Source: an uncultured delta proteobacterium | Lineage (GTDB): Bacteria; Desulfobacterota; Desulfobulbia; Desulfobulbales; Desulfocapsaceae | NCBI GenBank assembly: GCA_963745265.1 | Contig: CAVUXQ010000034.1 | Location: 41,560 to 105,559, forward strand | DNA length: 64,000 nucleotides | Direction: 5' to 3' | Shown: piece after piece, positions 8,920 through 63,540 of the stretch | Layout of the letters: each line of letters opens with the position of its first letter | Position numbering within the stretch: position 1 is the first letter of the stretch | Notes under the pieces: model-generated | What the model was told of the DNA's origin: nothing | Seen by the model: only the letters and a program-made list of their open reading frames with translations | Databases searched by the model: none | Position numbers and translations under genes: made by a program

Positions 8920-9841
8920 TCACCTGAAATCCCCAGCCGTAAAGCTCATCACCTCAGAAATATCCGACTTTCCCATAGCGAGCATCAACAAGCGATCAAG
9001 ACCGAAAGCGATGCCGGCGGCGCTCTCAATGGCTGCGAGTTCATCCAGCAACTGTTCCGGCATGGCCTGCCGCCTCCCCTCTCGCTTCTCTATGGTCTGC
9101 AGTTCCTGCTGAAATCGGCGTCGTTGTTCGCAAGGATCGGTGAGCTCGCTAAAGCCGTTGGCAAGCTCCAAGCCGGAGATATAGAGTTCGAACCTTTCCG
9201 CGACCGCAGGTTCCCCCGGTTTGAGTCGGGCAAGAGAGGCTAGCTGAGCCGGGTACTCACAGAGGAAAAGAGGTCGTCCTCGTCCAAGCCGAGGCTCGAT
9301 ATGTTCAACAAGCATCTCCTCGAAGCTGTCCTCTGCCAGGGCCTGTGATAGCGATACGGGCGAGAACCTCTCGAAGGCCTCAGCCACCGTCAGCTTTTCT
9401 CCCCCCCTCCAATGCGACCTCGTGCAACAACGGAGAATGGCGGATGGGAGAATGCGCAGGAGCCATTTCCTTGAGACCGCTGGCGATAAAAAACAACAGG
9501 GCGTCGCAATCGCTCATCAACTGGTGATAGTCGGCACCCGTGCGGTACCACTCCAGCATGGTGAACTCCTCAAGATGCCTGCTGCCATGCTCACCTTTGC
9601 GAAAACAAGGACAGATCTGGAATATTTTGCTGCAGCCGGCAGCCAGCAGCCGTTTCATGCACAGCTCTGGGGACGTTTGCAGAAAATGATCCTCAGCGCG
9701 CAGAGGGGTAATGTTGCTCTCGGGAATCGTCACCGGAAGGCGAACCGGGGTATCCACTTCGAGAAAGCCCCGATCACTGAAAAATTGACGAACCAGACGA
9801 AAAAGGGCCGCACGGATGTGCAGCCCCGGCAGATCCAACAT
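8920..9841 (-). pseudogene. epmA: EF-P lysine beta-lysyl ligase EpmA (GenX/PoxA), frameshifted in a C7 run
   Basis: ORF 9380..9841 is the class-II aaRS-like N-terminal half (FLEVDTPV...QTSPELCMKRLLAAG...FRKGEHGSRHLEEFTMLEWY). ORF 8920..9387 is the C-terminal half (ERFELYISGLELANGFSEL...AGIAFGLDRLLML). The frame changes at ccccccc, 9401..9407. Confidence 0.8.
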
Positions 9842-10590: not shown

Positions 10591-10737
10591 CCAGGAGTAT
10601 GACGGATTGGAGGCATTTTTCTCAGATCGAGGCGTTTCTCGAAACCTACGCGCAGCCATTTGTATGATATTGCAAGCATTCCTTTTCGAACGCGACAAAG
10701 ATATGGGAAAAAAGGACACAATCCGACAGGCTCCAGG
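10591..10737 (+). repeat. decayed copy of the 149-bp MITE-like element (family 1)
   Basis: ccaggagtatgacggattggaggcatttttctcagatcgaggc...gatatgggaaaaaaggacacaatccgacaggctccagg aligns end to end with the consensus but with many substitutions. Confidence 0.5.
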
Positions 10738-17823: not shown

Positions 17824-19266
<1,443 letters not shown>

Positions 19267-19316: not shown

Positions 19317-20197
19317 TTATTTAAGGGCTTCTGCACCGCCAACGATATCCATGAGTTCCGCTGTAATGGCGGCCTGGCGAGCCTTGTTGTATACGATGGT
19401 CAGATGATCGACAATATCCTTACATGCGTTGGTCGCATTATCCATGGCTGTCATCCTGGCGGCATGTTCACTTGCGCCGACCTCCAGCATGGCATGATAG
19501 ATCATGACGTTGAGATACAGTGGCTGGAGCACATCCATGATTTCTTCCGTGGAAGGCTCATAGATATATTCACCGGAGATCTTTTGTCGCCGCCGTCTCT
19601 TCACCGGCTTCGATGGGCTGAACCGGCAGAAATCTTGGTAACGGCCGGTCTCTGCTACAGCCACCGATTGAAATTCGCCGTAGATGACTTCAACCTTGTC
19701 CGCGTTGCCGCTCAAGAAAGTTTTCCGAGACGTCAGTGGCAATCTCCCGGGCGTTAAACATCTGGAAACGTGCCCATGATGTCGGTAAATTGCTTTCGAA
19801 CTTTCCCGGTTTTCGCAAGTAGCTGAAAGCCTTTTTTGCCGACACAGACAAGACTGACCGTTTTGCCTTCGGCCTCGTATTCAGCCATTTTCTTCTCGGC
19901 GAGCTTAATGATATTGGCATTAAAAGAGCCGCAGAGTCCGCGATCGGATGTGACGACGACCATACTCGACATTTTTCACTCGCGAGCTTCCATGAGAGGG
20001 AAACTATCCGGTGTTGGCTCCACTCGGACAGATTGGACATTGCCTCATTGAACTTGGAGGTATAGGGCCGAAAGTCCTCCATCTTTCTCCTGGGCACCGC
20101 GCAACCTTGCCGAGGCGACCATGTTCATGGCTTTGGTGATCTGGGATGTCTTCTTGACACCCTCGATCTTAGTTTGTACGTCTTTTAAACTGGGCAT
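19317..20197 (-). pseudogene. atpG: F1 ATP synthase gamma subunit, at least 6 frameshifts
   Basis: [38 protein letters not shown] (from the ATG at 20197), then [71 protein letters not shown] and the tail YEPSTEEIMDVL...MTAMDNATNA...ITAELMDIVGGAEALK are spread over all three frames. Confidence 0.85.
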
Positions 20198-23705: not shown

Positions 23706-26354
23706 TCAACCATGCAACAGTGAGGCAACCGTTTCTGAAACCTTCCTGATCGCCTCCGACAATTTATCGACCTGAGGTCCGCCGGCCTGAGCCATATCCG
23801 GGCGGCCGCCGCCTTTCCCACCCACCATCTTCGCTACCTCACTGATAAGCGCGCCGGCTTGAATTTTGTCAGTCAAGTCCTTGGTAACAATGGCCAGCAG
23901 TGCCACCTTGCCCTTGATCTGACCGCCAAGCACCGCCACGCCGGACCCAGGTTATCCCTCACTTTGTCGCCAACCTCGCGCAGAGTTTTGGGGCTGTCCA
24001 GTGGAATCTCCGCTGCCAACACTTTGACACCATCCACCTCGATAGTGTTGTTCAAAATCGTATCAAGATCGGAAGTCGCCAACCTGGCGGACAGATCCGC
24101 CACCTGTTTTTCCAATCGCTTCTGGGCCGCAAGCAACGTTTCGACTTTTTCGACAAGTTCCTCGTCACGAACATTCAACAGTTCACCCAGTTTTCTCACG
24201 CGCCGGTTCATCCTCTGGACATGGGCAAAGGCCGCGCTGCCAGCTATGGCTTCGATTCGGCGAACACCGGCAGCAATGCCGCTTTCGGTAATGATCTTGA
24301 AGAGGCCGATTTCGCCGGTGGCCCCTGCATGAGTGCCGCCGCACAGTTCCTTGCTGAAGCTCCCCATGGAGACTACACGCACCTTGTCTGCGTATTTCTC
24401 TCCAAACAGTGCGGTCGCTCCCCCCTGAATCGCTTCCTCACGAGCGAGAATATCGGTGGCGATGGGGAGATCGCGCCGCACCTGTTCATTGACCAGATTT
24501 TCAACCTCTTCGATCTCCTCAGGGGTCATCGGCGTGAAATGGGTGAAATCAAAACGCAACCGGTCCGGCCCCACGAGAGAACCTGATTGTTTGACATGGT
24601 CTCCCAGCACCTGGATCAGAGCCGCCTGCAACAGGTGCGTAGCAGAATGATTGGCGGCGGTGTTGCTTCGCCCTGCAACGTCCACCAGCAGATCCACCTG
24701 CTGGCCGACCTGCAGCACCCCTTCGCTTTACCTCGATATCACTGAAGACCAGGTTTTCTCCCTCTTTGAGCGTGGAAACTACTTCAGCCTGGCCTCCCTG
24801 CCACTCGACCATTCCACGATCCCCGAGCTGGCCGCCTGCCTCGGCGTAAAAAGGGCTCCTGGCAACGAACAACCTGCCTTGTTCGCCGGCTCCCAACTTC
24901 TCGACCGACCTTCCTTGTGCATCGATCAGGCCCTCCACCACGGCCTGCTCAGCCAAGGTGTCATAGCCGGTGAACTCCGTACGTTTGCCCTGATCCGCCA
25001 ACTGTTTCACGCCCTCATCCCTTAAGCGGACCCCCTCACCCTTGCGTGAAGCCTTGGACTTGGAACGCTGCTCCTGCATGGCACTGATAAATCCTGCTTC
25101 ATCGAAATCGACGCCCTTTTCCAGAGCAATGTCGCGAACGATATCAAAAGGGAAACCGAAGGTGTCGTAGAGCTTGAATATGAAGCGGCCGTCGATCTCC
25201 TTTCCACCAGAGGAGCGCAATTCGGCTATTTTCTCGTCGAGCAGCTGCAAGCCAAATTCAAGGGTTTCGCGAAATCTCTCTTCCTCGTTATTGACCACCT
25301 TCACCAGAAGTGTCCTGGCGTCGACCAAATGCGGATAGGCACCAGCCATTTCATCGACCACCGCTCCGGTCGCCTCCTCCATGAAGGGCTTTTCCAGCCC
25401 CAAATTCTTGCCGTATCGCACCGCTCGACGCATAATTCTGCGCAACACGTATCCGGGACCCTCATTGGAGGGCAGCACGCCGTCCGCCACCAGGAAAGCG
25501 GTGGCCCGGGCGTGATCCGCGATCACTCGCATGGCCACATTGTCGCTCTTCTTCGCACCATAGGTTTTGCCGGAGAGCGCCTCCAATCGATGGATAATCG
25601 GTCGGAACAAGTCTGAATCGAAGTTGTTGACCTTGCCCTGCAAAACAGCCGCCACCCGCTCGAGCCCCATGCCGGTATCGATACTGGGCTTGGGCAGAGG
25701 GGTCATTTTGCCGTCGGCGCTCCGGTTGAACTGCATGAACACCAGATTCCACAACTCTAAGAAGCGATCGCAGTCGCAGCCCAACGCGCAATCCGGCCGG
25801 CCGCATCCCGCCGCCTCGCCCTGATCGATATGGATCTCGGAACATGGTCCGCAGGGGCCGGTGTCTCCCATTGCCCAGAAGTTGTCCTTTTCGCCCATGC
25901 GCACGATGCGTCCCTTTGGCAGATCCTCGATCTTCTCCCACAAGCCGTAGGCTTCGTCATCATCCTCGTAGATGGAAACCCAGAGCTTTTCCGGGGGCAG
26001 CCCGAGTTCTACGGTGAGAAACTCCCATGCGTATTGAATCGCATCTTTCTTGAAATAGTCGCCGAATGAAAAATTTCCCAGCATTTCAAAAAAGGTATGG
26101 TGCCTGGCCGTATAGCCTACATTCTCAAGATCGTTGTGTTTGCCGCCGGCTCGAACACAACGTTGGCTGGTGACGGCCCGCACATAGTCCCGTTTCTCTT
26201 CGCCCATAAATACCCTTTTGAACTGCACCATGCCGGCGTTGGTAAAGAGCAGGGTCGGATCGTCTTTGGGGACCAGCGAGGAACTTTCCACCAGCGTGTG
26301 TTCCTTGGCTTGAAAATAGTTCAGGAATTTGGTTCGAATTTCGTTGCCATTCAT
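23706..26354 (-). pseudogene. alaS: alanine--tRNA ligase, two frameshifts (about 24718-24730 and about 23945-23950)
   Basis: Three consecutive ORFs. 24549..26354 gives MNGNEIRTKFLNYFQAKEHTLV...FTNAGMVQFK. 23873..24718 gives ...NHSATHLLQAALIQVLGDHVKQSGS.... 23706..23939 gives the C-terminal DHHA1-like ...[16 protein letters not shown]. Confidence 0.9.
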
Positions 26355-27799: not shown

Positions 27800-27948
27800 C
27801 TAGGAGTCTGTCGGATTATGCCCTTTTTCCCCATATCTTCGTTAAACTCGAAAAAATTATCCTCAGAATATTCAGTATATGCCTCCGGTAATTTTTTCGA
27901 ATTTGCCTCGATCTGAGCAAAAATGCCTATAATCCGACAGGCTCCTAG
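27800..27948 (-). repeat. 149-bp MITE-like element, family 1, copy A (inverted orientation)
   Basis: ctaggagtctgtcggattat...ataatccgacaggctcctag. Full-length reverse-complement match to the copies at 54219 and 63392. Confidence 0.8.
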
Positions 27949-29736: not shown

Positions 29737-32700
29737 CTATATAGGCAGGATATGATACTCTTCGCGGATGGGATGGGTACCCCGCAAGACCACGCCGTTA
29801 CGGCCGTCGATAGACACCGCGTCGCCGAACTGGATGCGGCACCCCCCGATTTCACAATACTGAGCCGTTTCATACACCTTCAATTGCTTGACCCCCACCA
29901 CGCAGGTCTTCTCAAGTCGCACGGCCACCACCGATGCATGCGAGGTCTGCCCACCGCGTGAGGTGAGCAGGGCATCGGCCATATTGATCACCTTGATATC
30001 CTCCGGCACGGTATCCTGACGGATGAGAATGAGAGGGGACGCCGGGTCTTTGACCCGGAGTTCGCGGATATGCTCCTCGGTAAACACCGCCCGACCGGAA
30101 AAAGCCGAACCGGACACCCCCACGCCCTGCCCAAGATAGGAGGCTTCCAGGACCTCGGTCTCGACGAAGACATCCAAGTGCTCTTTCTTCTTGATAGTGA
30201 TCATGTCCCGGGTCTGCAACAGATAAAGCTGGTCCGGTTCCGGCCCCTCGAAGGTGAATTCGATCTCCTGTGGGTTCCAGCGCTTGACATAGACCAGATC
30301 CCGAGAAATCTCCAAAAGTTCGTTATAGATAGCAGGAAACCGCCGCTCCAGGGTCTCGTCCACGTCGCGGCCATCCAGTTGGGCCTGTTCCACCGAGATG
30401 GCGCAACTGGTCACCAGGCCCGAGACGATGTCCTCCCCCTGGTCCCCGTAGGCGTAATCTCCCCACAGGGCCACCCGCTGCACCTTACGGTAGGGATGGG
30501 CGGTAAAAACAACCCCGGAGCCCGCGGTATCGCTGAGGTTCCCAAAAACCATGGCCTGGACGATGACCGCCGTTCCCCAGGAATCGGAGACATCCATTAT
30601 CCGGCGATAATCCGTGGCCTTCTGAGTGCCCCAGGAATCGAGAACGAGTTCCACAGCGTTGACCAACTGCAGCCAGGGGTCTTCCGGAATTCCAAGACCT
30701 CGCTGTCGAACCAGCTTCTGGTAGGACAGCGCCAGGTCCTTCATCTGGGCCGCGGAGAACTGCCGTTTTAAAGCAACCCCGTGCCTGGCTTTGGCCTCGT
30801 CCATCAACTCTTGAAAATCCTCGCGCTCCACCCCCGATATCATGGCCCAGGACTGAAGAAAACGGCGATAGTTGTCCCATGCCACATATTCGTTCCCTCC
30901 CCTGGCCACGTATTCGGCTATGATGTCCTTATTGAAGCCTACGTTATGAACGGTGGCCATCATGCCCGGCATGGAGATCGCTCCACCGCTGCGCACCGAC
31001 AAAAGCAGCGGCCGGTCCGGCGAGCCATAGATCCGTCCGGTCAATGCTTCGATCTCGGTGAGCGATTCGCGGATACGCTGCATGAATTCTCCGCGTGCCT
31101 GGGAATAGCCGAACACCACGTCACGGCAACGAAAGATCTCGGTGGTAATGACAAAAGCCGGCGGCACCGGGATATTCTCGGCCATCAAGGTGGCCAGGTT
31201 GAAGCCTTTGTTGCCCAGGTGGATCAGGTTATGGGTGAAGGGATTGGGCTTATGCAAAAGCGAGATGGCCTTGTCCTGATTGTAGGTCATGAGTAGATCG
31301 AGGTTACGCTTGTCGAGTTTGTCTTTTTGGCTTTCCAGGATCTGAATGATGCGCAGGATAAAATTGTCGAGGTGCTGCAGTCCGAAGGTCGACGAGATGA
31401 GTTCGCGTAAAAATGCTTCCGACAACCGCTGCACGGAGGTGCTCACATCGCCCTCCTCATAGAGGCTCTTATACTTGGGCAGGAGATTCTCCCGACCGAT
31501 CCGAGGAATGAGCATCGACAGATTGTTCTGGTGGATATTGGTGTAACTGGCGTAGATGACATCCTTCACCCCTTCCGAGAGGCCACGGAATATATCGAGG
31601 TACTGCGTATAGGAAAAACGCCTGACTTTCAGGGAACTGGTCAGCAGGGAGAGATAGGTGTCGAGCCGCCTCGAGGTGATGCCGTCGATTCGCAGCGCCT
31701 GCATAAACAGGCGCAGGCAGCGCACGATGTTCCAGAAGGTGGATTGGGTGATAAAGGTCAGGTTGACCGTCTCCGGGAGTTTCTCCAGATAGATATTGGC
31801 CAGGTTCTCCAGGCGGAAGGTCAGGCTCAGCGCGTCGAATTTCCGCTCTTTGTACCGCCCATAAACGGAAGGGATATCAACGGCGATGTGTCGCTTGTAG
31901 TAGATGTCCTCCCTGGCCTCGAACTTCTCTTTGGAGAGAATGGTGGACTTGAGTTCCTCGAGCGCCGTCAGGATCACCTCGAGGCACTGTTCGGTATCCT
32001 CGATAACCAACGCCTCAAGCACCTTTTCCATCTCCGGGAAACCGTCGTGTACCGCCTGCTGCAGTTCGGTACGAATTTCCTGGAACCCGAGTTGGTACTT
32101 TTTGTAGAGCAGCTGATACATCTTTACCAACAGCTCGAAGCGACGAACCTCGTGCTGCTCGACATCGCCCTGCGAACCGAGAAAATCGGAGAGTTTTTCC
32201 TGCCTCAAGCTCAACAGATCATCCACTTCCGATATACCCAGCTGCCGCCATGCCCGGTCGCAGAGGACCTGCTGGCTGTCGACAAAGGGGCCGGTGCAGG
32301 CCACCTGGCTGTAGACCTCTTCGGGCAGGAACGGCTCCAGCACTTGTTTTTCCCGGGTTTTCCAGAACTGGAATATCGCCTTGATGAAATCGACGATGAG
32401 GTTGCTGCTTTCCACATGCCCCTGCTTTCTCAGAAAATGAATAAGCAGATCCTTACGGCGGTGAATCTCGTCAAGCTCGGTCGAAACGTCTCGCAGTTCA
32501 CCTTCAGAACCGATTTCGTTGTAAAAAACCGGCATCAGCTTGGTGAACTGTTTGGCCAGGTTGTAGATCGGTTCGATCGGGTGGTTGAGCAACTCGGTAA
32601 TGTCCCGCTGAAACAGGTCGGTATCCTTGATGCAGGTGCCGGACAGTTTGAGATGAATGATGAGCGCGGAGAACAGGGTCGAACACCATTTGGGTTCGCG

Positions 32701-34020
32701 CATGATCAGATGCAGCCACACCCTGATATTGCTCAGGTGTGCCGGATTGACCAGCGGCTGCCAGTTTTCATCCACACCGGCAACGTTGGCATGCTGGAAT
32801 CCAAAGCGCACCACCCCCCAGAGAAAGGCCTCCACCATACGGCTGTTGCCGCGGTCAAAAACCTCCCCTCCCAGCACCTGAATGCACTGCAGGGAAGTAT
32901 GCGGGAATTTGCGCACGTTGGCCTTAAGGAGCTGGAAGGTGGTCAGCAGAAAGTCCTCGATCTCCTCGAACGACTGCTGCCGTACGAGTATCACCAAACT
33001 GCGGTTGATCTCTCGCAGGGTCTCCTCGTGGATCAGGTACAGCCCCCTGGTGTCCATGATCTTAAAGAGAAAAAGCAGCTTTTGATTCTCAAGAAACTGA
33101 TGAAGCTGCGTCCCCTCTTCATCCGTAACCGCCCACTCATCTTCGGCTTTCACAAATACATTTGGAACTTCGCGGTAATATCTGACAATATCCACATGCC
33201 CCGGCATTTCCAGCATCAACCCGAGGGCCGAGATCGGGTCGACGGCCAGATCAATGGATTCGAGTACCCGGATATGCTCGCGCATGGCAGCATGAGAGAT
33301 CTCGCCGAAGAGCGAAGCGCAATCCTCATCCTTTTCAAGAATCCGGCAATGTTCCTTGAACCAGGGCAGCGGATCGTCCTCTTGCAGCCAGTACTGGTAG
33401 TTTTTTCTAAATACGGTGCGCAGCAACGAGGCCAGAGGCAGATAGTCAAACACGACCTCCCCCTGCTCTTTAATTTCAACCAGCCGTGTTGCTATTTTTT
33501 TTACGGAATGCTGGCCGTGCACGATATAGATTATGATCTCCTCGTCTTCCCTGTCCAGCCGCTCGATCTGGTGAAACATCTCATTGAGCGGGGCCTCGAA
33601 ACGACCGAGGTCCTTCCGGTTGAACAGGGTGATCATCTTATCTATCCAGGCCAGCTTTGCCCCCACCACCTGGTTGAGCAGCGTCGGATTACGACGGCAG
33701 TCTTCAAGGGCCTCGAAAAAGAGGCGCGAAAACAACCGAAAGGCATCCGGGCCTTTCTCGTGGACCCGGTAATGCCCGCTGTTTTTGAGGACGAAACTGC
33801 GAAGCTGCGGGAGGATGATCCGCCAGTTGCGAAACGGATGGCATATTTCGTAGAGCAGCTTTTCAAGCGACGAGTGCAACCCCTTGTATTTCTCTACGAT
33901 TTCAAGAAGCAGCAGCAGTTCGGGATCTATCTCGACCTTGCCCGCCGTCTCCAGCAAGTTCGCTCTGAGGGCATCCGATTCGATAACATCGGTGTCATTT
34001 TCATTTTTCATAAACAGCAT
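29737..34020 (-). CDS. large PPDK-like dikinase-family protein: about 870-aa unknown helical N-terminal region + PPDK_N ATP-grasp + phosphohistidine swivel domain, no TIM barrel
   Basis: The C-terminal third reads NIPVPPAFVITTEIF...PLLLSVRSGGAISMPGMMATVHNVG...YRRFLQSW...WGTAVIVQAMVFGN...GSGVVFT...GDQGEDIVSGL...EIEFTFE...LYLLQTRDM, then LLTSRGGQTSHASVVAVRLEKTCVVGV. The start is uncertain (ATG 34020 or 34011; the maximal ORF runs to 34122). Confidence 0.8.
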   Translation of the reverse strand: MLFMKNENDTDVIESDALRANLLETAGKVEIDPELLLLLEIVEKYKGLHSSLEKLLYEICHPFRNWRIILPQLRSFVLKNSGHYRVHEKGPDAFRLFSRLFFEALEDCRRNPTLLNQVVGAKLAWIDKMITLFNRKDLGRFEAPLNEMFHQIERLDREDEEIIIYIVHGQHSVKKIATRLVEIKEQGEVVFDYLPLASLLRTVFRKNYQYWLQEDDPLPWFKEHCRILEKDEDCASLFGEISHAAMREHIRVLESIDLAVDPISALGLMLEMPGHVDIVRYYREVPNVFVKAEDEWAVTDEEGTQLHQFLENQKLLFLFKIMDTRGLYLIHEETLREINRSLVILVRQQSFEEIEDFLLTTFQLLKANVRKFPHTSLQCIQVLGGEVFDRGNSRMVEAFLWGVVRFGFQHANVAGVDENWQPLVNPAHLSNIRVWLHLIMREPKWCSTLFSALIIHLKLSGTCIKDTDLFQRDITELLNHPIEPIYNLAKQFTKLMPVFYNEIGSEGELRDVSTELDEIHRRKDLLIHFLRKQGHVESSNLIVDFIKAIFQFWKTREKQVLEPFLPEEVYSQVACTGPFVDSQQVLCDRAWRQLGISEVDDLLSLRQEKLSDFLGSQGDVEQHEVRRFELLVKMYQLLYKKYQLGFQEIRTELQQAVHDGFPEMEKVLEALVIEDTEQCLEVILTALEELKSTILSKEKFEAREDIYYKRHIAVDIPSVYGRYKERKFDALSLTFRLENLANIYLEKLPETVNLTFITQSTFWNIVRCLRLFMQALRIDGITSRRLDTYLSLLTSSLKVRRFSYTQYLDIFRGLSEGVKDVIYASYTNIHQNNLSMLIPRIGRENLLPKYKSLYEEGDVSTSVQRLSEAFLRELISSTFGLQHLDNFILRIIQILESQKDKLDKRNLDLLMTYNQDKAISLLHKPNPFTHNLIHLGNKGFNLATLMAENIPVPPAFVITTEIFRCRDVVFGYSQARGEFMQRIRESLTEIEALTGRIYGSPDRPLLLSVRSGGAISMPGMMATVHNVGFNKDIIAEYVARGGNEYVAWDNYRRFLQSWAMISGVEREDFQELMDEAKARHGVALKRQFSAAQMKDLALSYQKLVRQRGLGIPEDPWLQLVNAVELVLDSWGTQKATDYRRIMDVSDSWGTAVIVQAMVFGNLSDTAGSGVVFTAHPYRKVQRVALWGDYAYGDQGEDIVSGLVTSCAISVEQAQLDGRDVDETLERRFPAIYNELLEISRDLVYVKRWNPQEIEFTFEGPEPDQLYLLQTRDMITIKKKEHLDVFVETEVLEASYLGQGVGVSGSAFSGRAVFTEEHIRELRVKDPASPLILIRQDTVPEDIKVINMADALLTSRGGQTSHASVVAVRLEKTCVVGVKQLKVYETAQYCEIGGCRIQFGDAVSIDGRNGVVLRGTHPIREEYHILPI

Positions 34021-34188
34021 TCGGTGGTGGTTTATTGCCGCCTCGGGCGCGTATCCGATGCGAGGCCGGATCTCCCTCTGCCCTTTATTTGACCAGCAAC
34101 ATCTGCGCCGTCGCCATTGCATGCGCCAACGTCAGGATCAACCGCTGGCTTACGGCAAAAGGCTCAATCCGACAGGGTCCCAGGAGTT

Positions 34189-47723: not shown

Positions 47724-49015
47724 TCACTTTTCCAGCAACTTTTTGAATGACCATTCAGTCAGCGCCAGCGTCTTCTCGAGATCTTTTCCGCTATGGGCCG
47801 CAGAAATAAAAGCCACTTCGAACTGAGACGGTGCGAGGTTCACCCCTTTCGACAGCATTTGCCTGTAATGACAAGCATAATGATCGGTGTTCGATGTCAT
47901 CGCCGAATGAAAATCGACAACTTCACTGTTGGTGAAAAAGCAGGTCATCATTGAACCCACACGATTGAGGCTGACCGCTACCCCTGTTCGCCGGGCAATC
48001 TCTTCGAGTTGCTGGGCATAACCGGCTGCTTTGGCCTCCAGAAGGCTGTAGAAATCACTTTGCCTCAGCTGTTTCAAGGTGGCAATGCCGGCGGCCATGG
48101 CCAGCGGATTCCCCGATAACGTCCCCGCCTGATACACCGGGCCATCCGGGGCTATGCAATCCATGATTTCCGCCTTGCCGCCATATGCCCCGACCGGCAA
48201 CCCACCGCCGATTATTTTGCCGAGACAGGTGAGATCGGGAAGAACACCGAAATATTCCTGAGCCCCACCGTAGGCTAGCCGAAACCCCGTGATCACCTCA
48301 TCGAAGATGAGGACAATACCGAGTTCGGCGGTAAGTTCCCGGAGCTTGGCCAGAAACCCTGGCGCCGGCGGTACGCACCCCATATTGCCGGCCACGGGTT
48401 CAATAATCACGCAGGCGATGTCCAGATTTTCATCCCGCAAGGTTTTCTCGAGAATCACCGGATCGTTGTAGGGAATGGACACGGTATTTTTGACAATATC
48501 TTCCGGAACCCCGGGACTGCCGGGGATACCAAGGGTCAGCACTCCCGAGCCTGCCTTGACCAGAAAGGAATCGGCGTGTCCATGGTAGCAACCGTTGAAT
48601 TTACCACCACCTTTTTCCCCGTGTAGCCCCGCGCCAGCCTGACCGCACTCATGGTCGCTTCGGTACCCGAATTGACGAACCTGACCTTTTCCAGCGAGGG
48701 CAGCGCTTCCACCACCATCTCGGCCAACTCTATTTCTTTCGGCGAGGATGCGCCAAAACTCGTCCCGAGGGCGGCAGCCTCAGTGACAGCGCGTAAAATC
48801 AAGGGGTTGGCATGACCAAGAATCATCGGCCCCCACGATCCGATGAAGTCAATATATTCGTTGCCATCGACATCATAAACCATGGCGCCGCGGGCCCGTT
48901 CGATAAAAATCGGGTCGCAACCCACCGATCTGCAGGCGCGCACCGGACTGTTGACCCCGCCTGGAATGACGTTTCGTGCTTTTTCAAAGAGACGTTTCGA
49001 CGTAGCAGTATTCAT
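47724..49015 (-). pseudogene. hemL: glutamate-1-semialdehyde 2,1-aminomutase, one frameshift near 48595-48610
   Basis: ORF 48536..49129 contains [27 protein letters not shown]...[19 protein letters not shown]. The next frame reads [33 protein letters not shown]... through to the end (ORF 47724..48542). Confidence 0.9.
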
Positions 49016-49302
49016 GGATTTCCTCTTCGGGAGAATGTGCTGCGAATTCATAGACAGGCGCGGAGTATAGCATGAGGCTGTTTTTGTTGTCAAACTCCGT
49101 TCGCCTTGATTTTTATCGTATTCATGCAAAGATTACAAAACTGCATCAGAGAGGCAACGGAGCTCGCCGCGGCAGGGACAACATTTTGCTTGTCTCCTCC
49201 TGGAGCAGCAGGTAAACTGTGCGGGAAACTTATATTTTCCTGCAATTCATCAGTACGGCGACCTCCGACACTTTACAAACATCATTTTCAAAGGAGCAGA
49301 TA

Positions 49303-51530: not shown

Positions 51531-51679
51531 CTAGGAGGCTATCGGATTATAGGCATTTTTTCTCAGATCGAGGCGAAGTCGAAAAAATTACCGGAGGCAT
51601 ATACTCAATATTCCGAGGATAATTTTTCCGAGTTTAACGAAGATATGGGGGAAAAGGGCATAATCCGACAGGCTCCTAG
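51531..51679 (+). repeat. 149-bp MITE-like element, family 1, copy B
   Basis: ctaggaggctatcggattat...ataatccgacaggctcctag. Full length with a handful of substitutions. It lies between the convergent bamD and NIL-ferredoxin genes. Confidence 0.8.
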
Positions 51680-54218: not shown

Positions 54219-54367
54219 CTAGGAGCCTGTCGGATTATAGGCATTTTTGCTCAGATCGAGGCAAACTCGAAAAAATTACCGGAGGCATATACTGAATATT
54301 CCGAGGATAATTTTTTCGAGTTTAACGAAGATATGGGGAAAAAGGGCATAATCCGACAGGCTCCTAG
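54219..54367 (+). repeat. 149-bp MITE-like element, family 1, copy C (reference copy)
   Basis: Perfect 20-bp terminal inverted repeats ctaggagcctgtcggattat / ataatccgacaggctcctag and an internal perfect inverted repeat aaactcgaaaaaatta / taattttttcgagttt. Confidence 0.85.
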
Positions 54368-55187: not shown

Positions 55188-55446
55188 CCCGTGAGTCACG
55201 GGTCGGTCATCAGCACCGGGATCCAGAGAAAAAAGGCAGGTAAATTTTAGCGCATACCGGATTTATTCGCTTCTGGAGCTTGCAAGAATCAGTCATTCCG
55301 TTATAATCGCAAGGTTCGTTATCAGCGGAATCAATCCAGAGGCTCGGCCCCTGCATTTCTCCAACCGGCTGCGCGGCATGCCGCCCGGATTTCCCTGCCG
55401 TCGCAGAGAGAGACATATCCTTTTCACCACATCTTCAAGGCCTTCC

Positions 55447-58015
55447 ATGAATACTTCACTCAAGCTCAAACTGGGACTGCTCCTCTTTTTGGTTGTGATG
55501 TCCGTCGTGACAATCATGCCATCTTTTTATTCCGGCATGCCGCACTGGTGGAAAAAATATCTGGCACCAAGCGGTCTCCGGCTCGGCCTCGATCTGCAGG
55601 GCGGCATGCACCTGGTGCTCAAGGTCAATCTCCAAAAGGCTGAACAGAACACTCTGGCATTCGCGGCAAATGATCTCAAGGAAACCCTGGCGGAGAAATC
55701 CATCAGTGCCGTACGCACCCCCTCGGCCAACAAAGAGGAGGTCGTCTTCACCCTTCCCAACACCAACGCGCTTGATCAGGTCAAGAATGTACTTAGTTCC
55801 GACTTCCCCGATCTCGCCAGCAAAGTTGAAAATACTAAGGGCAGCTTTCCTCGTATTATTCTTACGCTGGCCAAGGAGAGGAAAGATTATATCAAGAACC
55901 ACGCTGTCGACCAGTCGCTGGAGATCATCCGGAATCGTATCGACCAATTCGGTGTGGCCGAGCCGGTCATCATCCGCCAGGGTACGGATGAGATCGTAGT
56001 CGAGCTGCCCGGCGTCAAAGATCCGAAACGGGCCATAAAACTCATTGGCGATACCGCTCAGCTGGAATTCAAGCTGGTCGCCGACGCACCCGATGTCAAT
56101 CTGCCGGCGCTTATCGCGCAGGCCGAACAGTCCAAGCAGTGGAATCCCAAGGAAAGCACCGCCAAGCTCAATCGCGCGCTGCAGAACACCCTTCCCGACA
56201 ATACCAGCATCTATTTCGAAACGGACAAAGATCCCAAGACCGGTCGCACCACCACCACGCCGCTTCTGCTGGAAAACAAAGTACTCATGACCGGCGAGAT
56301 GGTAAAAGACGCCAATGTGCGGATCGGCGGCACCTTTAACGAACCCTATGTCAGCCTCGATCTCACTAACCGCGGCGGCACGGTTTTCGCCAATATCACC
56401 TCAAAGAACGTGGGTAAGCGGCTGGCTATCGTTCTCGACGGCAAGGTCCGTTCCGCCCCAGTCATCACGGGAGCGCATTCTCGGCGGCCGAGCCCAGATT
56501 TCCGGCAATTTCAGCCATGCCGAAGCCGCCGACCTGGCTATCGTCCTGCGGGTGGGCGCTCTGCCGGCACCTGTCGACATCATTCAGAAGATGACGGTTG
56601 GCGCCAGCCTCGGGCAGGACTCCATCAACAAGGGACTGAGTTCGGGTGTTTTCGGGGCGATCATGGTGCTCTGCTTCATGTTTATTTATTACCGACTCTC
56701 CGGCACCATCGCCAATATCGCCATGGCGCTCAACATCCTCTTTTTGTTCGCCGGGTTGGCGGTTTTGAGCGCTACCCTGACACTACCAGGCATCGCAGGT
56801 ATCATCCTTTCCATAGGTATGGCGGTCGACGCCAATGTGCTGATATTCGAGCGTATGCGCGAAGAGTACGAAGTTGGGAAAACGGTTCGTTCCTGCATCG
56901 ATACCGGCTTCGGCAAGGCCTTCTGGAGTATCTTCGATTCCCAGGTGACCACCCTGATCACCGCCATTGCCCTGTTCATGTTCGGCACCGGCCCGATCAA
57001 GGGATTTGCCATCACGCTCTCGCTGGGCATCATTTTTAACCTCTATACCGCCCTCTCCGGTTCCCGGTTGATGTTCGACACAATCAATGCCAGCTCCCAT
57101 CCCATGAAGAAGCTGCGCTTTCTGCGTTTTACCAAGAAGCCGAACATCGATTACATGCGGTTGAAGAAATTCACCTTTACCGGCTCGGCTGTCATGCTGC
57201 TCATCGGCCTGTTCGCCATTATCCAGATCGGACGCGGCACCGCTAACCTCGGTGTGGACTTCGCAGGCGGCGTGCTACTCCAATACAAGGCCGACCAGTC
57301 GTTTACCATGAGTCAGGTACGCAAGGCCTTCAGCCACCATGATCTCAAAGACATCAACCTGCAGCAGGTCGAAAACGAGAATCGGTTAATCGTCAAGATC
57401 AAGAAATCCGAGAAAGTTGTTGGCAGCCTCAGCGATCAAATCACCCAAATTCTCACTACCGACCTCCCCGGAAAGCACTTTGCCCTGGAGAGTCAGTCGG
57501 AAATTGGCGCCTCGGTGAGCAGTGCCTTACGCGACAAGGCCGTTTTAGCCATTATCATCTCCATGGCCGGGGTCATTCTCTATCTGGCGGTGCGCTTCAA
57601 CTTCATCTTCGGCCTGGCGGCTGCGGCCGCGGTCTTCCACGATGTCATAGTGGTCCTCGGTCTCTGCTATCTCTTTCATATCGAGATCACCCTGCTGATT
57701 GTCACCGCTCTGCTCACCCTGGCCGGGTACTCGCTTAACGACACGGTCGTCATTTTCGATCGAATCAGGGAGAACATGCACAAGACGGAGAATAAATCCC
57801 TCGACTCGCTTATCAATCTCAGTGTCAACCAGGTGCTGAGCCGAACGATCATCACCGCGCTCACCGTTGTTCTGGTACTCCTCGCCCTCTTTTTGATGGG
57901 TGGTACGGTTATCCATGGTTTCTCCTTTGCGCTGCTCACTGGAACCATTGTTGGCACCTACTCGTCTATTTTCATTGCCAGTCCGCTGCTCACCCTGCGC
58001 AAACAGTCTCTATGA
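55447..58015 (+). pseudogene. secDF: fused protein-export membrane protein SecDF, one frameshift near 56462-56475
   Basis: ORF 55378..57039 gives the SecD N-terminus (MNTSLKLKLGLLLFLVVMSV...LGLDLQGGMHLVL...) up to [20 protein letters not shown] 56315..58015 continues [16 protein letters not shown]... through the SecD TM bundle and, with no stop, into SecF ([12 protein letters not shown]...[12 protein letters not shown]). Confidence 0.9.
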
Positions 58016-59443: not shown

Positions 59444-60616
59444 CTATACCGAACCCGATTCGTCCACTCGTTTCACGCCTTCCATCAGAAGCGCCATAAA
59501 ATCGCCTATCTCCGCCGCTTTCATCTCCTGCGGCGACAGCCCGGTGGTAAAACGGTACAGTCCGTGTTTTTCGGCAAGCATGGCGAAGATGGCAGCTTCG
59601 TTTTGCCTCGACCCATACTGGGCATTGATAATACACCCTTCGCGAAAAGAAACCCTGGCTTCGCCATGGGAGAGCTGCATTTTCAAGACACCCGTTTTCT
59701 GGTGCATGTGGAAGACCTGAAACAGCTCCGCCGGCACCACCTGATCAAGCCTGCCGCTCATGCACGAATCAAAATCCCGGGCTCTGGCAATATTGATCTG
59801 CTGCAACCGCTCGGCCAGCAGCTTGGCCATGAATAACTGTACCGAAGTGGCGCTGTCGACCAGTTGACCGAAGTCCTCCGAATTTATCGCCAGCACCAGA
59901 GAATCCTTTCTGGCCCGGACCGTTGCCACAGCGTCCCCGATACCGAGATAGCTCATTTCTCCAAATATTTCCCCCGCCCCCAGGGTGGCGATCATCTGAT
60001 CGCTTATTTCGATCACAAACTCTCCTTCCATGATCAGGTAGAGATTTGGATTCGGTTCCCCCTGCCGCACGACCACGGAGCCGGAGCTTACCGACAGTTC
60101 TTCGAAATTTTGCAGAATTTCCGCTATTCGCTGACTTGGCAGAGCCCGCAGAAATGCACAGTCCATGACCCGACCATGGATCTCCTGCATCGCGGCCTGC
60201 ATCCGGGCTGCCACCTTTTCGGAATCTTCTCCCGGCTTTGCGGCCTCTTCGGAAATCTGCCGGAATTTAATTAGGCCGGTGCACCCGCTGCAGCCAAACA
60301 GTTGATTCGGAACCTTTTCCCCCTCTTTGCTCCGTTGTTTGAGCATAACAAAGAGCAGTTGGGTCATATCCCGTACGAGAATGAGACAGACTTCCTTGCC
60401 CTCAGGACAACTGAACGTTTTCTCCGTCAGCGTCATCTGGTCGCCCTTGGCATAGAGCGGGCAGTTTATCTCCTCGGCGATCTCGAAAAGAGCCTTGAAA
60501 GTTTTCATAGCAATCAACAGCAGTTCATCCGTGAAAGGTAAGGATTCTTCTCGCCCTCGCCAAAGGGCGGCTACGTTGTAACACAATACGGAGCGTTCCC
60601 TGCACTCCGGCGGCAC
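59444..60616 (-). CDS. cyclic-nucleotide-binding domain protein with C-terminal DUF4388 (PATAN-like) domain
   Basis: cNMP-binding block FLRALPSQRIAEILQNFEELSVSSGSVVVRQGEPNPNLYLIMEGEF...GEIFGEMSYLG. The C-terminal PAELFQVFHMHQKTGVLKMQLSHGEARVSFREGCIINAQYG is typical of DUF4388. The start is uncertain (GTG 60616 or ATG 60508). Confidence 0.6.
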   Translation of the reverse strand: MPPECRERSVLCYNVAALWRGREESLPFTDELLLIAMKTFKALFEIAEEINCPLYAKGDQMTLTEKTFSCPEGKEVCLILVRDMTQLLFVMLKQRSKEGEKVPNQLFGCSGCTGLIKFRQISEEAAKPGEDSEKVAARMQAAMQEIHGRVMDCAFLRALPSQRIAEILQNFEELSVSSGSVVVRQGEPNPNLYLIMEGEFVIEISDQMIATLGAGEIFGEMSYLGIGDAVATVRARKDSLVLAINSEDFGQLVDSATSVQLFMAKLLAERLQQINIARARDFDSCMSGRLDQVVPAELFQVFHMHQKTGVLKMQLSHGEARVSFREGCIINAQYGSRQNEAAIFAMLAEKHGLYRFTTGLSPQEMKAAEIGDFMALLMEGVKRVDESGSV

Positions 60617-60881
60617 GCTCTGAGAAATTTAGGGTGCCGGCGAACGTTTACCCCAATACCCCATATCGGTCAAATAAAAGAATAAGCATCAGTCCACCGG
60701 CGATGAACCTGAGGAACTGGAGTCCCAGCACCATTATCTGCGAACGGGCAAACAACCATACTCCATAGTATACTTATCATAAAGCAAGATTGCCGGCATA
60801 CAGTTTTGTCTTGGAGTCCACATTGGAAATTGCTATATTGGTTTTGGTTTCCACTCTTGCAATCTGGCTCCTTATGAGATT

Positions 60882-63382
60882 ATGAATCTTCAGACTCACG
60901 AGTTGGGGGATATATTCGCTGAAATTCAAACTGAATTTTCAGATGATCCTGTCATTCGGGTAGAACCTGTCGCAGGCGATCCTCCCAACCAATACGACAT
61001 AACCTACGAGCTCTCCTGCACCAGCCGGGACGAGCGTGGCAATATCGCTGTTACTTCTCCACACAGTGTAACGATATCGATCCCTTTTGGTTTTCCACAC
61101 TTCCCTCCGAGTTGCAAGCCCAAAAGCGCAATCTTCCATCCCGATTTCGATCCGGCAGCAATCTGTCTGGGCAGCTTCTGGGATAGTGATCGCAACTTAC
61201 CGGAATTGATCCGCTATATTGGCAGAATGATTTCAGGTGAGATCTATTCTCGGGATCACGCATTCAACGAGGAAGCCGCCCTCTGGTTTGCTCAGCACAC
61301 CGACGAGTTACCATTCTCCTCATATGACGGATTGTCAACAGCACGCTCAACCGGCGCTTCGCTTGACGGGCATCTCGCTGAAGGCGCCAAAGAAAATGAA
61401 CTGGGAACACTTGAGGATCGTGATTTCGTCGATGATTTGGATTATGACCACCAACCTGCCACGCCGCCACCTCTCTTCGCGACCCCCGAGCCGGTTGACA
61501 CCGAATCGCAGGAACCACCTGAAATACCAATTGAGAAATTGCTTCTTCTCGCTGAAGAGAGAAAATTTCAGGCCTTAGCCGAGGAACTTGCATCATTTCC
61601 CCAGAACGTCGAATTCGCTCAAAAGCAAATCCTCACCGAACAGGCATCTTCAGCGCTTCGAGCCGCCCACCAAAGATACGACGAAGCTCAAGACCTCGAA
61701 GACGAGGGCAACACCCAGCTAGCACTGCATGCTTATCTTGAGGTCGAAACCCTGGTCGCCGACTACCCCCGCATCAAAGGGGACATCAGCAGAGTGGAAC
61801 AGGCGGTCGACCTCCTCAGCGAGTTCTCAACGCCATCGAGCGGCGCACAGCCGGAAAACGACACCCCTGCTACTCGCCCCAAGAAGCCGCTCGCCGCAAA
61901 AAAAGCCAGGGAGGCGCGCCCTAAAAAAACAGCCGGTAGCACGATCCACCGACGCCCCTTACGTTTCGCCTGGGTCGCCATGGGAGGCGCGGCTCTCTGC
62001 TTGATTGCCTTATTTGCTGTTGTTTACCTCGTGCCCAATTCCCGAATGAACGAGGCCCGACAACTCTATTCCGACTGTACATCGCATCTGGCACGACAGG
62101 AGTTTGAAGCGGCCGATCGCACGTGCCGCGCCTCACTGGCAAAAGCCCAAAGCATCTACCTCGGTCACGATACCGAACTCGCTCGCCTGACCGCCAATAT
62201 AGAAGAAATCTTACAATCAAAGCAACTCAGGCAGGGGGTGCTCGGCAACGTGCTCTTCGAGGGGAAATATATTCCCAAAGAGTTGCTTGCCGGCCGCCAG
62301 GCGGTTGCAAAAGACATCTCCAAGGCAGACAGTTTCGCCGACGCAGCATCGTGGAAAGAGGCGGAGAATTGGTATCGGAAGGCGCTCAACCGTGGCCGGG
62401 GAACGGCCGAACTCACGGACGCCGAACTGGCAAAGATCAATCATAAGATTGCTTATGCTCAGTTTCAATTGCAACTCTCACTGGCAGAGCAACGCATGGG
62501 GCTAGGGCAGTGGCAGCAGGCTATAGATATACTGGAAAATCTGCAGACTCAGCTTGACGTGCTTGCGCCCGACCACCGCAAAGAATATCAGCAAAAGCTT
62601 GAAACCCTCTTGGCCAAGAGTCGCTTTTCCAAACTCAAACAGCAGGCAAACACCCTCTTTTCCAAATCCGACTGGAAGGGAGCATTTTCTCTATTTCAAA
62701 AAGCGGTAGAAGCAGGACGGGACCTCTCTGCAACAGAATCACAGGAGGTCAATAACTTACAGGAAGATATCGCCAAGGCTGAGCTCTATTCCACTATCAA
62801 TTCCGGCAACAGCGCTTTTGCAGCCGGTGCGTGGGATGACGCCATACACAACTATAGAAAAGCGCAGCATATACTAAAAATAAAGCGGATCAGCTCCATC
62901 TTCCAGCACCCGAAAAGAGCAAGCGCAAGATCGATCGCATTATTCTGCAATCGAAAATTATCCGGGATAGGCAGCTGTCGGACCATCATAAAGCATCCGG
63001 GGACACAGATGGAGCCCTTAAGTATCTCGATGGCATTCTGGCTGAGATTCACGCCAGCGATTTCAACGACGATCCGGAATTTAAGCAGGTAGTACACGAA
63101 ACAAAGAGGGCGCAACAGGATCTGAAGACAGCGTTGTTTTTGGAGCACCGAAAACAGTATCTGCTAAAAAACTATAAGGACTTGTTTTTTAAAAATTATC
63201 CTGCGGCCAATAAAGGCAGTCTGGCGGCTCCCGTAGCAACGTTTGAGAAAAAACTCGACGACCGCTACCTGTTCAAGCTGCAATGCACCCAATCAGGATT
63301 AGGCAGGCCACTTACGCTGATCATGTACTACTCGTACAACCCAAATACCAAGGCGTGGAATCTGCAGAATGTTGAAAATTGA
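60882..63382 (+). pseudogene. UBC/E2-like domain + single TM helix + TPR-like repeat protein, frameshifted in an A5 run (62876..62880)
   Basis: The N-terminal 140 aa align block for block with E2 cores (ISIPFGFPHFPPSCKPKSAIFHPDFDPAAICLGSFW...LPELIRYIGRMISGE). TM helix FAWVAMGGAALCLIALFAVVYLV. The C-terminal repeats follow W..A...Y.KA. The alternative frame from about 62858 continues ADQLHLPAPEKSKRKIDRIILQ... into ORF 63134..63382. Confidence 0.7.
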
Positions 63383-63391
63383 TATCCTGCG

Positions 63392-63540
63392 CTAGGAGCC
63401 TGTCGGATTATAGGCATTTTTGCTCAGATCGAGGCAAACTCGAAAAAATTACCGGAGGCATATACTGAATATTCCGAGGATAATTTTTTCGATTTTAACG
63501 AAGATATGGGAAAAAAGGGCATAATCCGACAGGCTCCTAG
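63392..63540 (+). repeat. 149-bp MITE-like element, family 1, copy D
   Basis: It differs from copy C at 2 positions by my alignment. It lies between the convergent E2-like gene and kpsF. Confidence 0.85.

Follow-up and report, generated by a model that had tools for sequence, protein, structure and literature searches.

The DNA analysed here, referred to below as the window, is a 64,000-nucleotide stretch from an uncultured delta proteobacterium of the Desulfocapsaceae (contig CAVUXQ010000034.1, positions 41,560 to 105,559). Towards its 3' end lies a gene encoding a protein, here called E2-TPR, that combines an N-terminal domain of ubiquitin-conjugating (UBC, or E2) fold with a single transmembrane helix and a series of TPR-like repeats. 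E2-TPR proves to be a single-copy, syntenic, order-wide core gene of the Desulfobulbales, and comparison of its relatives suggests that the protein is probably reused for something other than ubiquitin-like tagging. The gene and the parts of its product are listed below, with amino acids (aa) numbered along the repaired protein.

60882..63382, forward strand: whole gene, UBC–transmembrane–TPR-like protein; 833 aa when repaired, 736 aa as assembled
60882..61316, forward strand: UBC/E2-fold domain, predicted cytoplasmic, aa 1-145 (Pfam, PDB profile, AlphaFold2/Foldseek)
61113..61115, forward strand: Cys78 in a PPSCKP motif, aligned with the Val of UBE2C PTVKF (alignments)
61137..61145, forward strand: HPD motif, aa 86-88, counterpart of the E2 HPN (alignments)
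61164..61166, forward strand: Cys95, at the E2 catalytic-cysteine position (UBE2C alignment, conservation)
61329..61511, forward strand: acidic disordered linker, about aa 150-210 (predicted local distance difference test, pLDDT, below 50 over aa 153-178 and 183-210)
61524..61826, forward strand: helical domain, cytoplasmic, aa 215-315, with a conserved ExxG…DYP…R signature (AlphaFold2, conservation)
61830..61964, forward strand: basic Lys/Arg/Pro-rich disordered linker, aa 317-361, ending in HRRPLR (AlphaFold2, sequence)
61965..62033, forward strand: single transmembrane helix FAWVAMGGAALCLIALFAVVYLV, aa 362-384 (hydrophobic segment, model)
62094..63196, forward strand: periplasmic alpha-helical TPR-like repeats, aa 405-772, about 370 aa (AlphaFold2)
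62876..62880, forward strand: A5 run with one base missing, the likely frameshift site (tblastn frame switch, repair score of a hidden Markov model, HMM)
63221..63367, forward strand: C-terminal four-strand beta domain, aa 781-829, within the post-frameshift frame (AlphaFold2)

The assignment of the N-terminal domain to a true eukaryote-type UBC fold, of UQ_con and not Prok-E2 type, is solid. Taken alone, the window sequence matches Pfam UQ_con (PF00179) at E=0.0025 and 17.9 bits, short of the curated 27-bit cut-off, while a phmmer search of the PDB gave UBC9 as the best match (0.005) and returned E2s for nearly all of the 60 matches listed, the non-E2 proteins being two mitochondrial ribosomal protein chains. 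When 36 N-terminal domains of relatives were aligned, UQ_con matched 36 of 36 (best 2.7e-8) and the Prok-E2 families in Pfam matched none of them; operon-type relatives of the domain, described below, reach 39 bits to UQ_con, which is above the Pfam cut-off. A profile of the 36-domain alignment detected 226 PDB chains at E≤1, and all 60 of those listed are E2s. Its best match, UBE2C (E=1.8e-5, profile positions 42-134), sets HPD in register with HPN and Cys95 with the catalytic cysteine. The AlphaFold2 model made from the same alignment (pLDDT 91; predicted template modelling score 0.86) displays the secondary-structure order of an E2, whose fold comprises an N-terminal helix, a sheet of four antiparallel strands and C-terminal helices, and of its 368 Foldseek matches in the PDB at E≤1e-3 the 50 listed are without exception E2s, with TM-scores of 0.6-0.7. 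An NCBIfam scan of the whole protein returned only noise. An earlier reading of this DNA from its letters alone (the sequence-only reading) had recognized a eukaryote-like UBC/E2 core in the motifs IPFGFPHFPPSCKP, HPD at aa 86-88 and Cys95, all of which are present, and had proposed structure prediction with Foldseek, and a comparison of UQ_con with Prok-E2 profiles, as checks. Both checks, like the PDB profile, uphold its view of the core.

The remainder of the protein was modelled with AlphaFold2 on 74 sequences (pLDDT 85.6). A single hydrophobic segment is present in 67 of the 74 relatives, and the 25-residue flanks of the transmembrane helix contain on average 5.8 Lys and Arg residues upstream and 2.6 downstream; therefore, the UBC end is predicted to be cytoplasmic and the repeats periplasmic, in agreement with the earlier proposal of a membrane-tethered protein whose E2-like domain faces the cytoplasm. 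The TPR-like repeats that had been suspected beyond the helix take the form, in the model, of helical hairpins that stack across aa 405-772 and recur about every 53 residues, a spacing also seen in the tryptophans W491, W544, W598 and W651. TPRs proper are helix-turn-helix units of 34 residues arranged in tandem; Pfam TPR_1 and TPR_2 match this region weakly (18.5-18.6 bits against cut-offs of 27-27.8), and a Foldseek search with the full-length model gave TPR matches down to E of about 1e-4 with low TM-scores. Beyond E2s, that search returned only generic TPR or solenoid proteins and provided no lead for the periplasmic or beta domains. Three cysteines on the predicted periplasmic side are invariant, Cys399 and Cys415 between the transmembrane helix and the repeat region and Cys802 in the beta domain, which also displays a conserved RPLxLxMxY motif. 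The beta domain, the helical domain at aa 215-315 and the invariant Cys78 are features to which the earlier reading made no reference.

With the repaired protein as query 342 relatives were found. The best 120 of these are 816-899 aa long (the 736-aa open reading frame (ORF) of the window excepted) and align over 99-100% of the query with 31-46% identity; those with names belong to Desulfopila, Desulfomarina, Desulfofustis, Desulforhopalus and Desulfoprunum, and some relatives have been automatically annotated in public databases as 'UBC core domain-containing protein' or 'ubiquitin-conjugating enzyme E2'. When one genome was scanned for each species, at least 139 were found to contain a relative, a lower bound as the scan patterns were drawn from the window's clade. 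The best 80 loci share synteny and, where named, come from Desulfobulbales or organisms with Desulfobacterota-type names, apart from a few generic titles of metagenome-assembled genomes. In almost all loci the gene order is secDF–CxxCxxCC–HAD–<cNMP_binding/PatA_N gene–E2-TPR>–<kpsF, with metK, ahcY and dsrD/AB beyond, and the neighbouring proteins in the window are 60-75% identical to those of Desulfopila and Desulfosediminicola loci. The neighbours named in the sequence-only reading, a divergent cNMP-binding/DUF4388 gene and kpsF, are thus the standing neighbours of the family, and its proposal to examine whether the neighbourhood is conserved is answered by this synteny. The view of the window gene as an isolated oddity has, in contrast, to be corrected. 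A 544-aa 'short' relative (locus L089) lies in an unrelated neighbourhood. Two features on the upstream side are relevant to the interpretation that follows.

59444..60508, reverse strand: divergent neighbour, cNMP_binding plus DUF4388/PatA_N (PATAN), the conserved partner candidate
60509..60881, strand not applicable: shared divergent intergenic region, presumed promoter region

The divergent neighbour consists of a conserved N-terminal segment of about 125 aa without a Pfam match, followed by the cNMP_binding domain and then DUF4388/PatA_N. The Desulfobulbaceae version of the PatA_N gene encodes 205 aa and lacks the cNMP domain. A defence role was considered and rejected, as it is solely through its cNMP-binding domain that this neighbour matches the Pycsar/TIR effector models of PADLOC.

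The residues that would mediate E2 catalysis display an uneven pattern of conservation. A profile search of 1.84 billion representative proteins gave 1234 matches at E≤1e-3 and 152 at E≤1e-30. Among the 120 closest relatives His61, His73, Cys78, His86, Pro87, Asp88, Asp90, Trp100 and Trp135 are invariant, and in a wider set of 256 sequences His86 and Pro87 are still invariant (256/256), with His61 in 247 and His73 in 223; Asn129 is, like Trp100, also retained. Position 88 is Asp in 233 of the 256 and Asn in 19, the Asn marking an operon-linked clade. The catalytic position itself is more variable. Residue 95 is Cys in 111, Ser in seven and Arg in two of the 120 closest relatives, and Cys in 184, Arg in 41 and Ser in 12 of the 256, loss of the cysteine to Ser or Arg having occurred repeatedly inside the window's clade. 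Cys78 is present in 120/120 within that clade and is replaced by Val or Ala in Desulfobulbaceae orthologues.

Three clades can be distinguished. Clade (a), to which the window protein belongs, reads IPFGFPHFPPSCKP…FHPDFDPAAICLGDFW; clade (b) reads LPFGYPHFPPTVKP…FHPDIDPDAIRIADYW and has Cys at neither site; and clade (c) reads …CKMLTPIFHPNFDPSAICIGDHW, with a canonical HPN…Cys. The clade (b) protein P0204 (Val78/Arg95) is encoded at a locus with the order secDF–CxxCxxCC–HD–HAD–x–<PatA_N–UQ_con/TPR>…<kpsF…dsrD, whose SecDF is about 70% identical to the SecDF of clade (a) loci. Clade (b) is the same-locus orthologue of the window gene. Arg occupies the Cys position in 111 of the 112 closest relatives of P0204, including those of Desulfobulbus, Desulfogranum and Desulfolithobacter. 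The two cysteines co-vary, with both present in 184 sequences, Val or Ala at 78 together with Arg at 95 in 147, and mixed states rare. Since Arg replaces Cys in the same-locus orthologues, the function shared across the order would not need a thioester. Of the HPD…C pair on which the sequence-only reading had leaned, the His-Pro half therefore holds throughout (256/256), whereas the cysteine has been exchanged for Arg in 111/112 Desulfobulbaceae sequences. Similarly, its open choice between enzyme and pseudo-enzyme is decided only in part: across the family the loss of Cys favours a pseudo-enzyme or repurposed module, while in the window's clade Cys95 is under selection.

Four of the proteins that NCBI names 'ubiquitin-conjugating enzyme E2' (P0322, P0337, P0345 and P0282, from Desulfogranum, Desulfobulbus and Thermodesulfobacteriota records) have Arg at the catalytic-Cys site and no Cys at position 78. 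On such Cys-less members the E2 name is probably a misannotation.

If E2-TPR were a conventional conjugating enzyme, genes for an activating enzyme (E1), a ubiquitin-like protein (Ubl) or a deconjugating JAB peptidase might have been expected nearby. Members of the ThiF, ubiquitin, YukD, ThiS, MoaD and JAB Pfam families were not found among the ORFs of the window, tblastn with operon-encoded YukD, ThiF, JAB and RING proteins found none in the window or within ±10 kb at 83 related loci, and no PADLOC model was matched by the E2-TPR protein. The earlier remark that an E1, Ubl or JAB partner is missing from the vicinity consequently extends from the window to these 83 loci. Clade (c), in contrast, is embedded in conjugation operons: P0243 lies in the order YukD–ThiF–JAB–x–VWA/FHA–ProkRING/RDD–ProkRING–UQ_con(932 aa)–UQ_con(816 aa), and P0245 in YukD–ThiF–FHA–ProkRING–UQ_con–trypsin. 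The UBC domains of this clade are 39-44% identical to those of the family over about 140-150 aa (profile E 1e-31 to 1e-34), and one alignment with an operon-type E2 spans 323 aa, extending into the helical domain. Named relatives of the operon E1 are mostly from Planctomycetota, Hydrogenedentes and Sumerlaeota, with no Desulfobulbales name among the best 120. Clade (c) most likely keeps the ancestral condition, from which we infer that clades (a) and (b) are derived, because HPN…Cys is the eukaryotic and archaeal state too. The HPN…Cys operon relatives would thus offer a plausible origin for the UBC domain of E2-TPR.

As an observation in its own right, complete eukaryote-like conjugation operons are present on contigs from uncultured samples (L084, 248-12451; L088, 349-7418). 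The longer version comprises a YukD-type Ubl, a ThiF E1, JAB, VWA/FHA, two Prok-RING proteins and, in tandem, two large UQ_con E2s of 932 and 816 aa. The 816-aa UQ_con E2 of these operons has C-terminal transmembrane segments, and a shorter operon version is accompanied by a trypsin-like protease.

Drawing these data together, we hold with moderate confidence that E2-TPR would be an exapted, non-conjugating UBC module mounted on a transmembrane scaffold, and that the frameshift in the window copy, considered below, would be artefactual. The conserved job of the protein would then involve no thioester relay. In the Desulfobulbales the UBC domain is mounted on another chassis, comprising linker, helical domain, transmembrane helix, periplasmic repeats and beta domain, and would probably act there as a binding platform resembling the UEV proteins, the catalytically inactive E2 variants. 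The most conserved surface of the domain is formed by the L4 loop and the HPD loop, and it is kept in the Arg clade too; in a normal E2 this is the side on which E3 ligases and the active site are located. As the surface is conserved even in the Arg clade, the site would appear to be in use, but not for thioester chemistry. We propose that the active-site/L4 face (IPFGFPHFPPSCKP…HPDFD) may bind a partner in the cytoplasm and link it to the ligand, of whatever kind, of the periplasmic repeats. The strongest candidate for this partner is the PATAN/cNMP-binding protein of the divergent gene, because its gene is retained beside E2-TPR, divergently upstream, in both clades (a) and (b), even where the cNMP domain is missing. 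In cyanobacteria, the type IV pilus motor is reported to be a binding target of PATAN domains (bioRxiv 10.1101/2021.06.11.447907). In the Desulfocapsaceae the Cys78/Cys95 pair may, more speculatively, add a thiol-dependent step, either redox or covalent.

It should be emphasized, however, that several observations weigh against this interpretation. At each of the two sites clade (a) makes frequent use of both Cys codons (TGC 42 and TGT 40 at position 95, and TGC 57 and TGT 28 at position 78, in 89 loci), and therefore Cys78 and Cys95 appear to be under purifying selection. By this codon evidence the pair is clearly kept by selection in the window's clade, and would hence be functional there, so that thioester chemistry with an E1 and Ubl encoded in trans may be possible in that clade. 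The window protein itself departs from its 120 relatives at two conserved sites, with His126 where 116 have Asn and Ser98 where 104 have Asp. The PATAN gene is missing beside the E2 gene in about eight loci with enough flank (for example L010, L058, L063 and L077), and the order-wide synteny may result from vertical inheritance instead of functional coupling.

The alternative that best survives these comparisons, although we consider it unlikely, is that E2-TPR would be an active, free-standing membrane E2, in which Cys95 is charged by an E1 encoded elsewhere and the targets are located at the inner membrane. The E1 and Ubl could be supplied by an unlinked YukD/ThiF-type pair, or by housekeeping MoeB/ThiF with MoaD/ThiS, and the periplasmic repeat domain would perhaps gate the activity. 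Such an enzyme is consistent with the retention of the fold, the His-Pro of HPN, a Cys at the canonical position, Trp100 and Asn129, with the purifying selection on Cys95 in the window's clade, and with the nature of the closest canonical relatives, bona fide E2s encoded in operons alongside E1, Ubl, JAB and RING genes. It is difficult to reconcile, however, with the lack of E1, Ubl, JAB and RING genes in the 64-kb window and in the 83 loci ±10 kb, or with the absence of a Desulfobulbales name from the 120 relatives listed for the operon-type E1. In E2 enzymology isopeptide formation requires the Asn of HPN, a position that is Asp in 233/256 sequences. Furthermore, the same-locus orthologues have Arg at the Cys position, and Ser or Arg has arisen there repeatedly inside the clade. 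A related and rather unlikely proposition is that the Cys form of the Desulfocapsaceae would be a working membrane E2 or thiol-relay enzyme engaged in core physiology and not in defence. If this were true, an E2 charged by a trans-encoded or housekeeping MoeB/ThiF-type E1 together with a beta-grasp carrier would be controlled by periplasmic repeats, and sulfate reducers would contain a chromosomal, vertically inherited ubiquitin-like conjugation step, of which the Arg form would be a natural pseudo-enzyme derivative.

Co-variation of the two cysteines (both present in 184 sequences, Val or Ala with Arg in 147, mixed states rare) could instead be taken to indicate a thiol sensor or switch, in which Cys78, Cys95, His61 and His73 would form a redox disulfide or metal site that signals the redox or metal state of the cytoplasm to the membrane protein, the site having been replaced by Val or Ala and Arg in the Desulfobulbaceae. 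We regard this as distinctly improbable. The co-variation is confounded by phylogeny, as it reflects essentially a single clade split, and the histidines, His61, His73 and His86, which are invariant in the 120 relatives and nearly so in the 256, are conserved in the Cys-less clade as well and are thus not there solely for the Cys site. Purifying selection on both cysteines, and anaerobic sulfur-cycling hosts that constitute a plausible context, nevertheless fit a sensor of this kind.

The frame of the gene bears on whether the window copy is intact, the weakest of the alternatives being that it is not. As assembled, the ORF spans 60882..63092 on the forward strand and encodes 736 aa, but its tail is out of frame past about 62876; a second frame carries on for 165 codons without a stop to the TGA at 63380-63382. 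A look-up of the 736-aa product found no record of it. Searches by tblastn with two orthologues place the frame change between 62876 and 62918, with 41-52% identity to these proteins in the stretch beyond the switch. If the A5 run at 62876-62880 is lengthened by one A, an 833-aa protein is restored, 99-100% of which is covered by relatives in alignments. Against a family HMM, whose alignment includes the repaired window sequence itself, the assembled ORF scores 791.7 bits and every one-nucleotide insertion at 62876-62881 scores 1014.7 bits, the best among all positions tried. The sequence-only reading had located the break in this A5 run and predicted the length of about 833 aa after repair, and the HMM scores agree with it. 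At least six housekeeping genes of the same window are also split across overlapping ORFs in different frames.

55378-58015: secDF, 68-73% identical to relatives, with a frame switch at about 56444-56466
17982-19266: atpD, with the beta-barrel domain in 18778-19266 and the nucleotide-binding domain in 17982-18974
19317-20097: atpG, a single ORF holding only profile positions 157-285
23873-26354: alaS, with the catalytic core and the SAD domain in different ORFs
47724-49129: hemL, with Aminotran_3 positions 10-113 and 181-357 in different ORFs
8920-9841: epmA, with tRNA-synt_2 positions 22-146 and 189-305 in different ORFs

No organism could dispense with ATP synthase beta, AlaRS and SecDF, and the splits are most economically explained by an assembly prone to indels. 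Because these six genes are split too, and more than 300 relatives of E2-TPR are intact, an assembly or sequencing error is the most likely source of the frameshift at 62876-62880, and thus the gene is probably intact in the organism. Every apparent pseudogene of the window is probably suspect for the same reason. That the gene is a real, recently inactivated pseudogene, in which a biological frameshift garbles the protein after about aa 665, is highly improbable: the frameshift is indeed present in the assembled sequence, and two conserved sites of the window copy are occupied by rare residues (His126 and Ser98), but the break falls in a homopolymer, the downstream frame is open over 165 codons that are 41-52% identical to relatives, and atpD, atpG, alaS, hemL, epmA and secDF are broken alike within the same 64 kb, which points to assembly indels. 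Programmed frameshifting at the A-run was ruled out, as the relatives are all single-frame and many unrelated genes of the window are broken too.

Comparison with characterized proteins supports the earlier statement that the architecture fits no described system. With eukaryotic and archaeal E2s of the UQ_con type (UBE2C, UbcH5, Ubc9) the family shares the fold, the FP..YP..PP motif, His-Pro, a Cys about nine residues later, the Trp and the Asn in the last helices. It differs from these classical E2s in having HPD and not HPN, an extra invariant Cys78, a catalytic Cys that varies among orthologues, and some 690 further residues with a transmembrane helix and periplasmic repeats, and in the lack of an E1, Ubl or E3 nearby. 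The closest relatives of the UBC domain are the E2s of the bacterial YukD–ThiF–(JAB)–Prok-RING operons (L084, L088); operons with prokaryotic RING fingers were described by Burroughs, Iyer and Aravind in 2011, as cited in PMC10557695. These E2s resemble the window protein in that an N-terminal UBC domain is followed by a helical region within a long protein, with transmembrane segments in some. However, they keep HPN…Cys and adjoin Ubl, E1, JAB and RING genes, whereas the window protein is without partners and has a different C-terminal half.

The UEV proteins or pseudo-E2s (Mms2/Uev1a, the TSG101 UEV domain, AKTIP) use a UBC fold as a binding module without a catalytic Cys, and are soluble eukaryotic ubiquitin-binding proteins. 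The likeness to them lies in the Desulfobulbaceae orthologues, with Arg at the Cys position, while the window protein itself has Cys95; no UEV-specific sequence relationship was found. A cytosol-facing UBC domain held at the membrane by a single transmembrane helix is also seen in Ubc6, UBE2J1 and UBE2J2, which are membrane-anchored eukaryotic E2s. These tail-anchored enzymes act together with E1 and ubiquitin and lack all but a trace of a luminal domain, in contrast to the window protein, which continues for about 450 aa beyond the membrane and has no evident conjugation machinery. A discussion of UBE2J2 is found in PMC11649903. CBASS Cap2 and the Bil and Bub systems (PMC10097602, PMC10557695, PMC11601596) resemble it in placing an E2-like domain in a bacterium. 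Their domains are, however, of divergent Prok-E2 type and reside in mobile, sporadic operons with E1, Ubl and JAB genes, while the window family is of UQ_con type, chromosomal, syntenic and order-wide, and has no PADLOC match.

To our knowledge, nearly all E2-like domains described from bacteria belong to sporadic, mobile operons equipped with E1, Ubl and peptidase genes of their own, and the majority of these operons are linked to phage defence. The bacterial E2 literature deals with such operon-encoded systems (PMC1779556, PMC10557695, PMC11601596, PMC10097602). Literature searches on the Desulfobulbales family and on ubiquitin-conjugating proteins found no paper on the family, and a broad search for bacterial E2/UBC domains with transmembrane and TPR segments returned eukaryotic papers only. 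The UBC domain family is already known, and member proteins are automatically annotated in databases. What is new is the combination of this architecture with a place in the core genome of a whole order, separation from E1 and Ubl, and a sister clade in which Cys has naturally given way to Arg; nothing so far shows any new chemistry. This study thus identifies a eukaryote-type UBC domain that is fixed in the vertically inherited core genome of an order of sulfate reducers and their relatives. The sister families constitute a natural experiment, with a selected Cys pair in one and an essentially fixed Arg (111/112) at the same site in the other. This contrast allows the role of a UBC fold after loss of E2 function, and the emergence of pseudo-E2s, to be tested; the UEV proteins of eukaryotes are otherwise the main known case of a transition from E2 to pseudo-E2. 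An annotation problem is exposed too, in that Cys-less members are publicly named 'ubiquitin-conjugating enzyme E2'.

Two other features of the window deserve mention. At 29737-34122 on the reverse strand is encoded a 1461-aa protein, only the C-terminal 450 aa or so of which match PPDK_N/PEP-utilizers, while its N-terminal approximately 1000 aa have no Pfam match at E≤1e-4. The window also contains a 149-bp palindromic intergenic repeat that resembles a miniature inverted-repeat transposable element or a repetitive extragenic palindrome. Its four full copies (27800-27948, 51531-51679, 54219-54367 and 63392-63540) have a mean column identity of 87%, and there is a partial match at 10718-10737. 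The repeat has terminal inverted repeats, CTAGGAGCCTGTCGGATTAT, for which the chance expectation is 0 matches, and a nested inner palindrome. The stop codons of the convergent E2-TPR and kpsF genes flank the copy at 63392-63540, which has a folding energy of -69 kcal/mol (z = -7.7).

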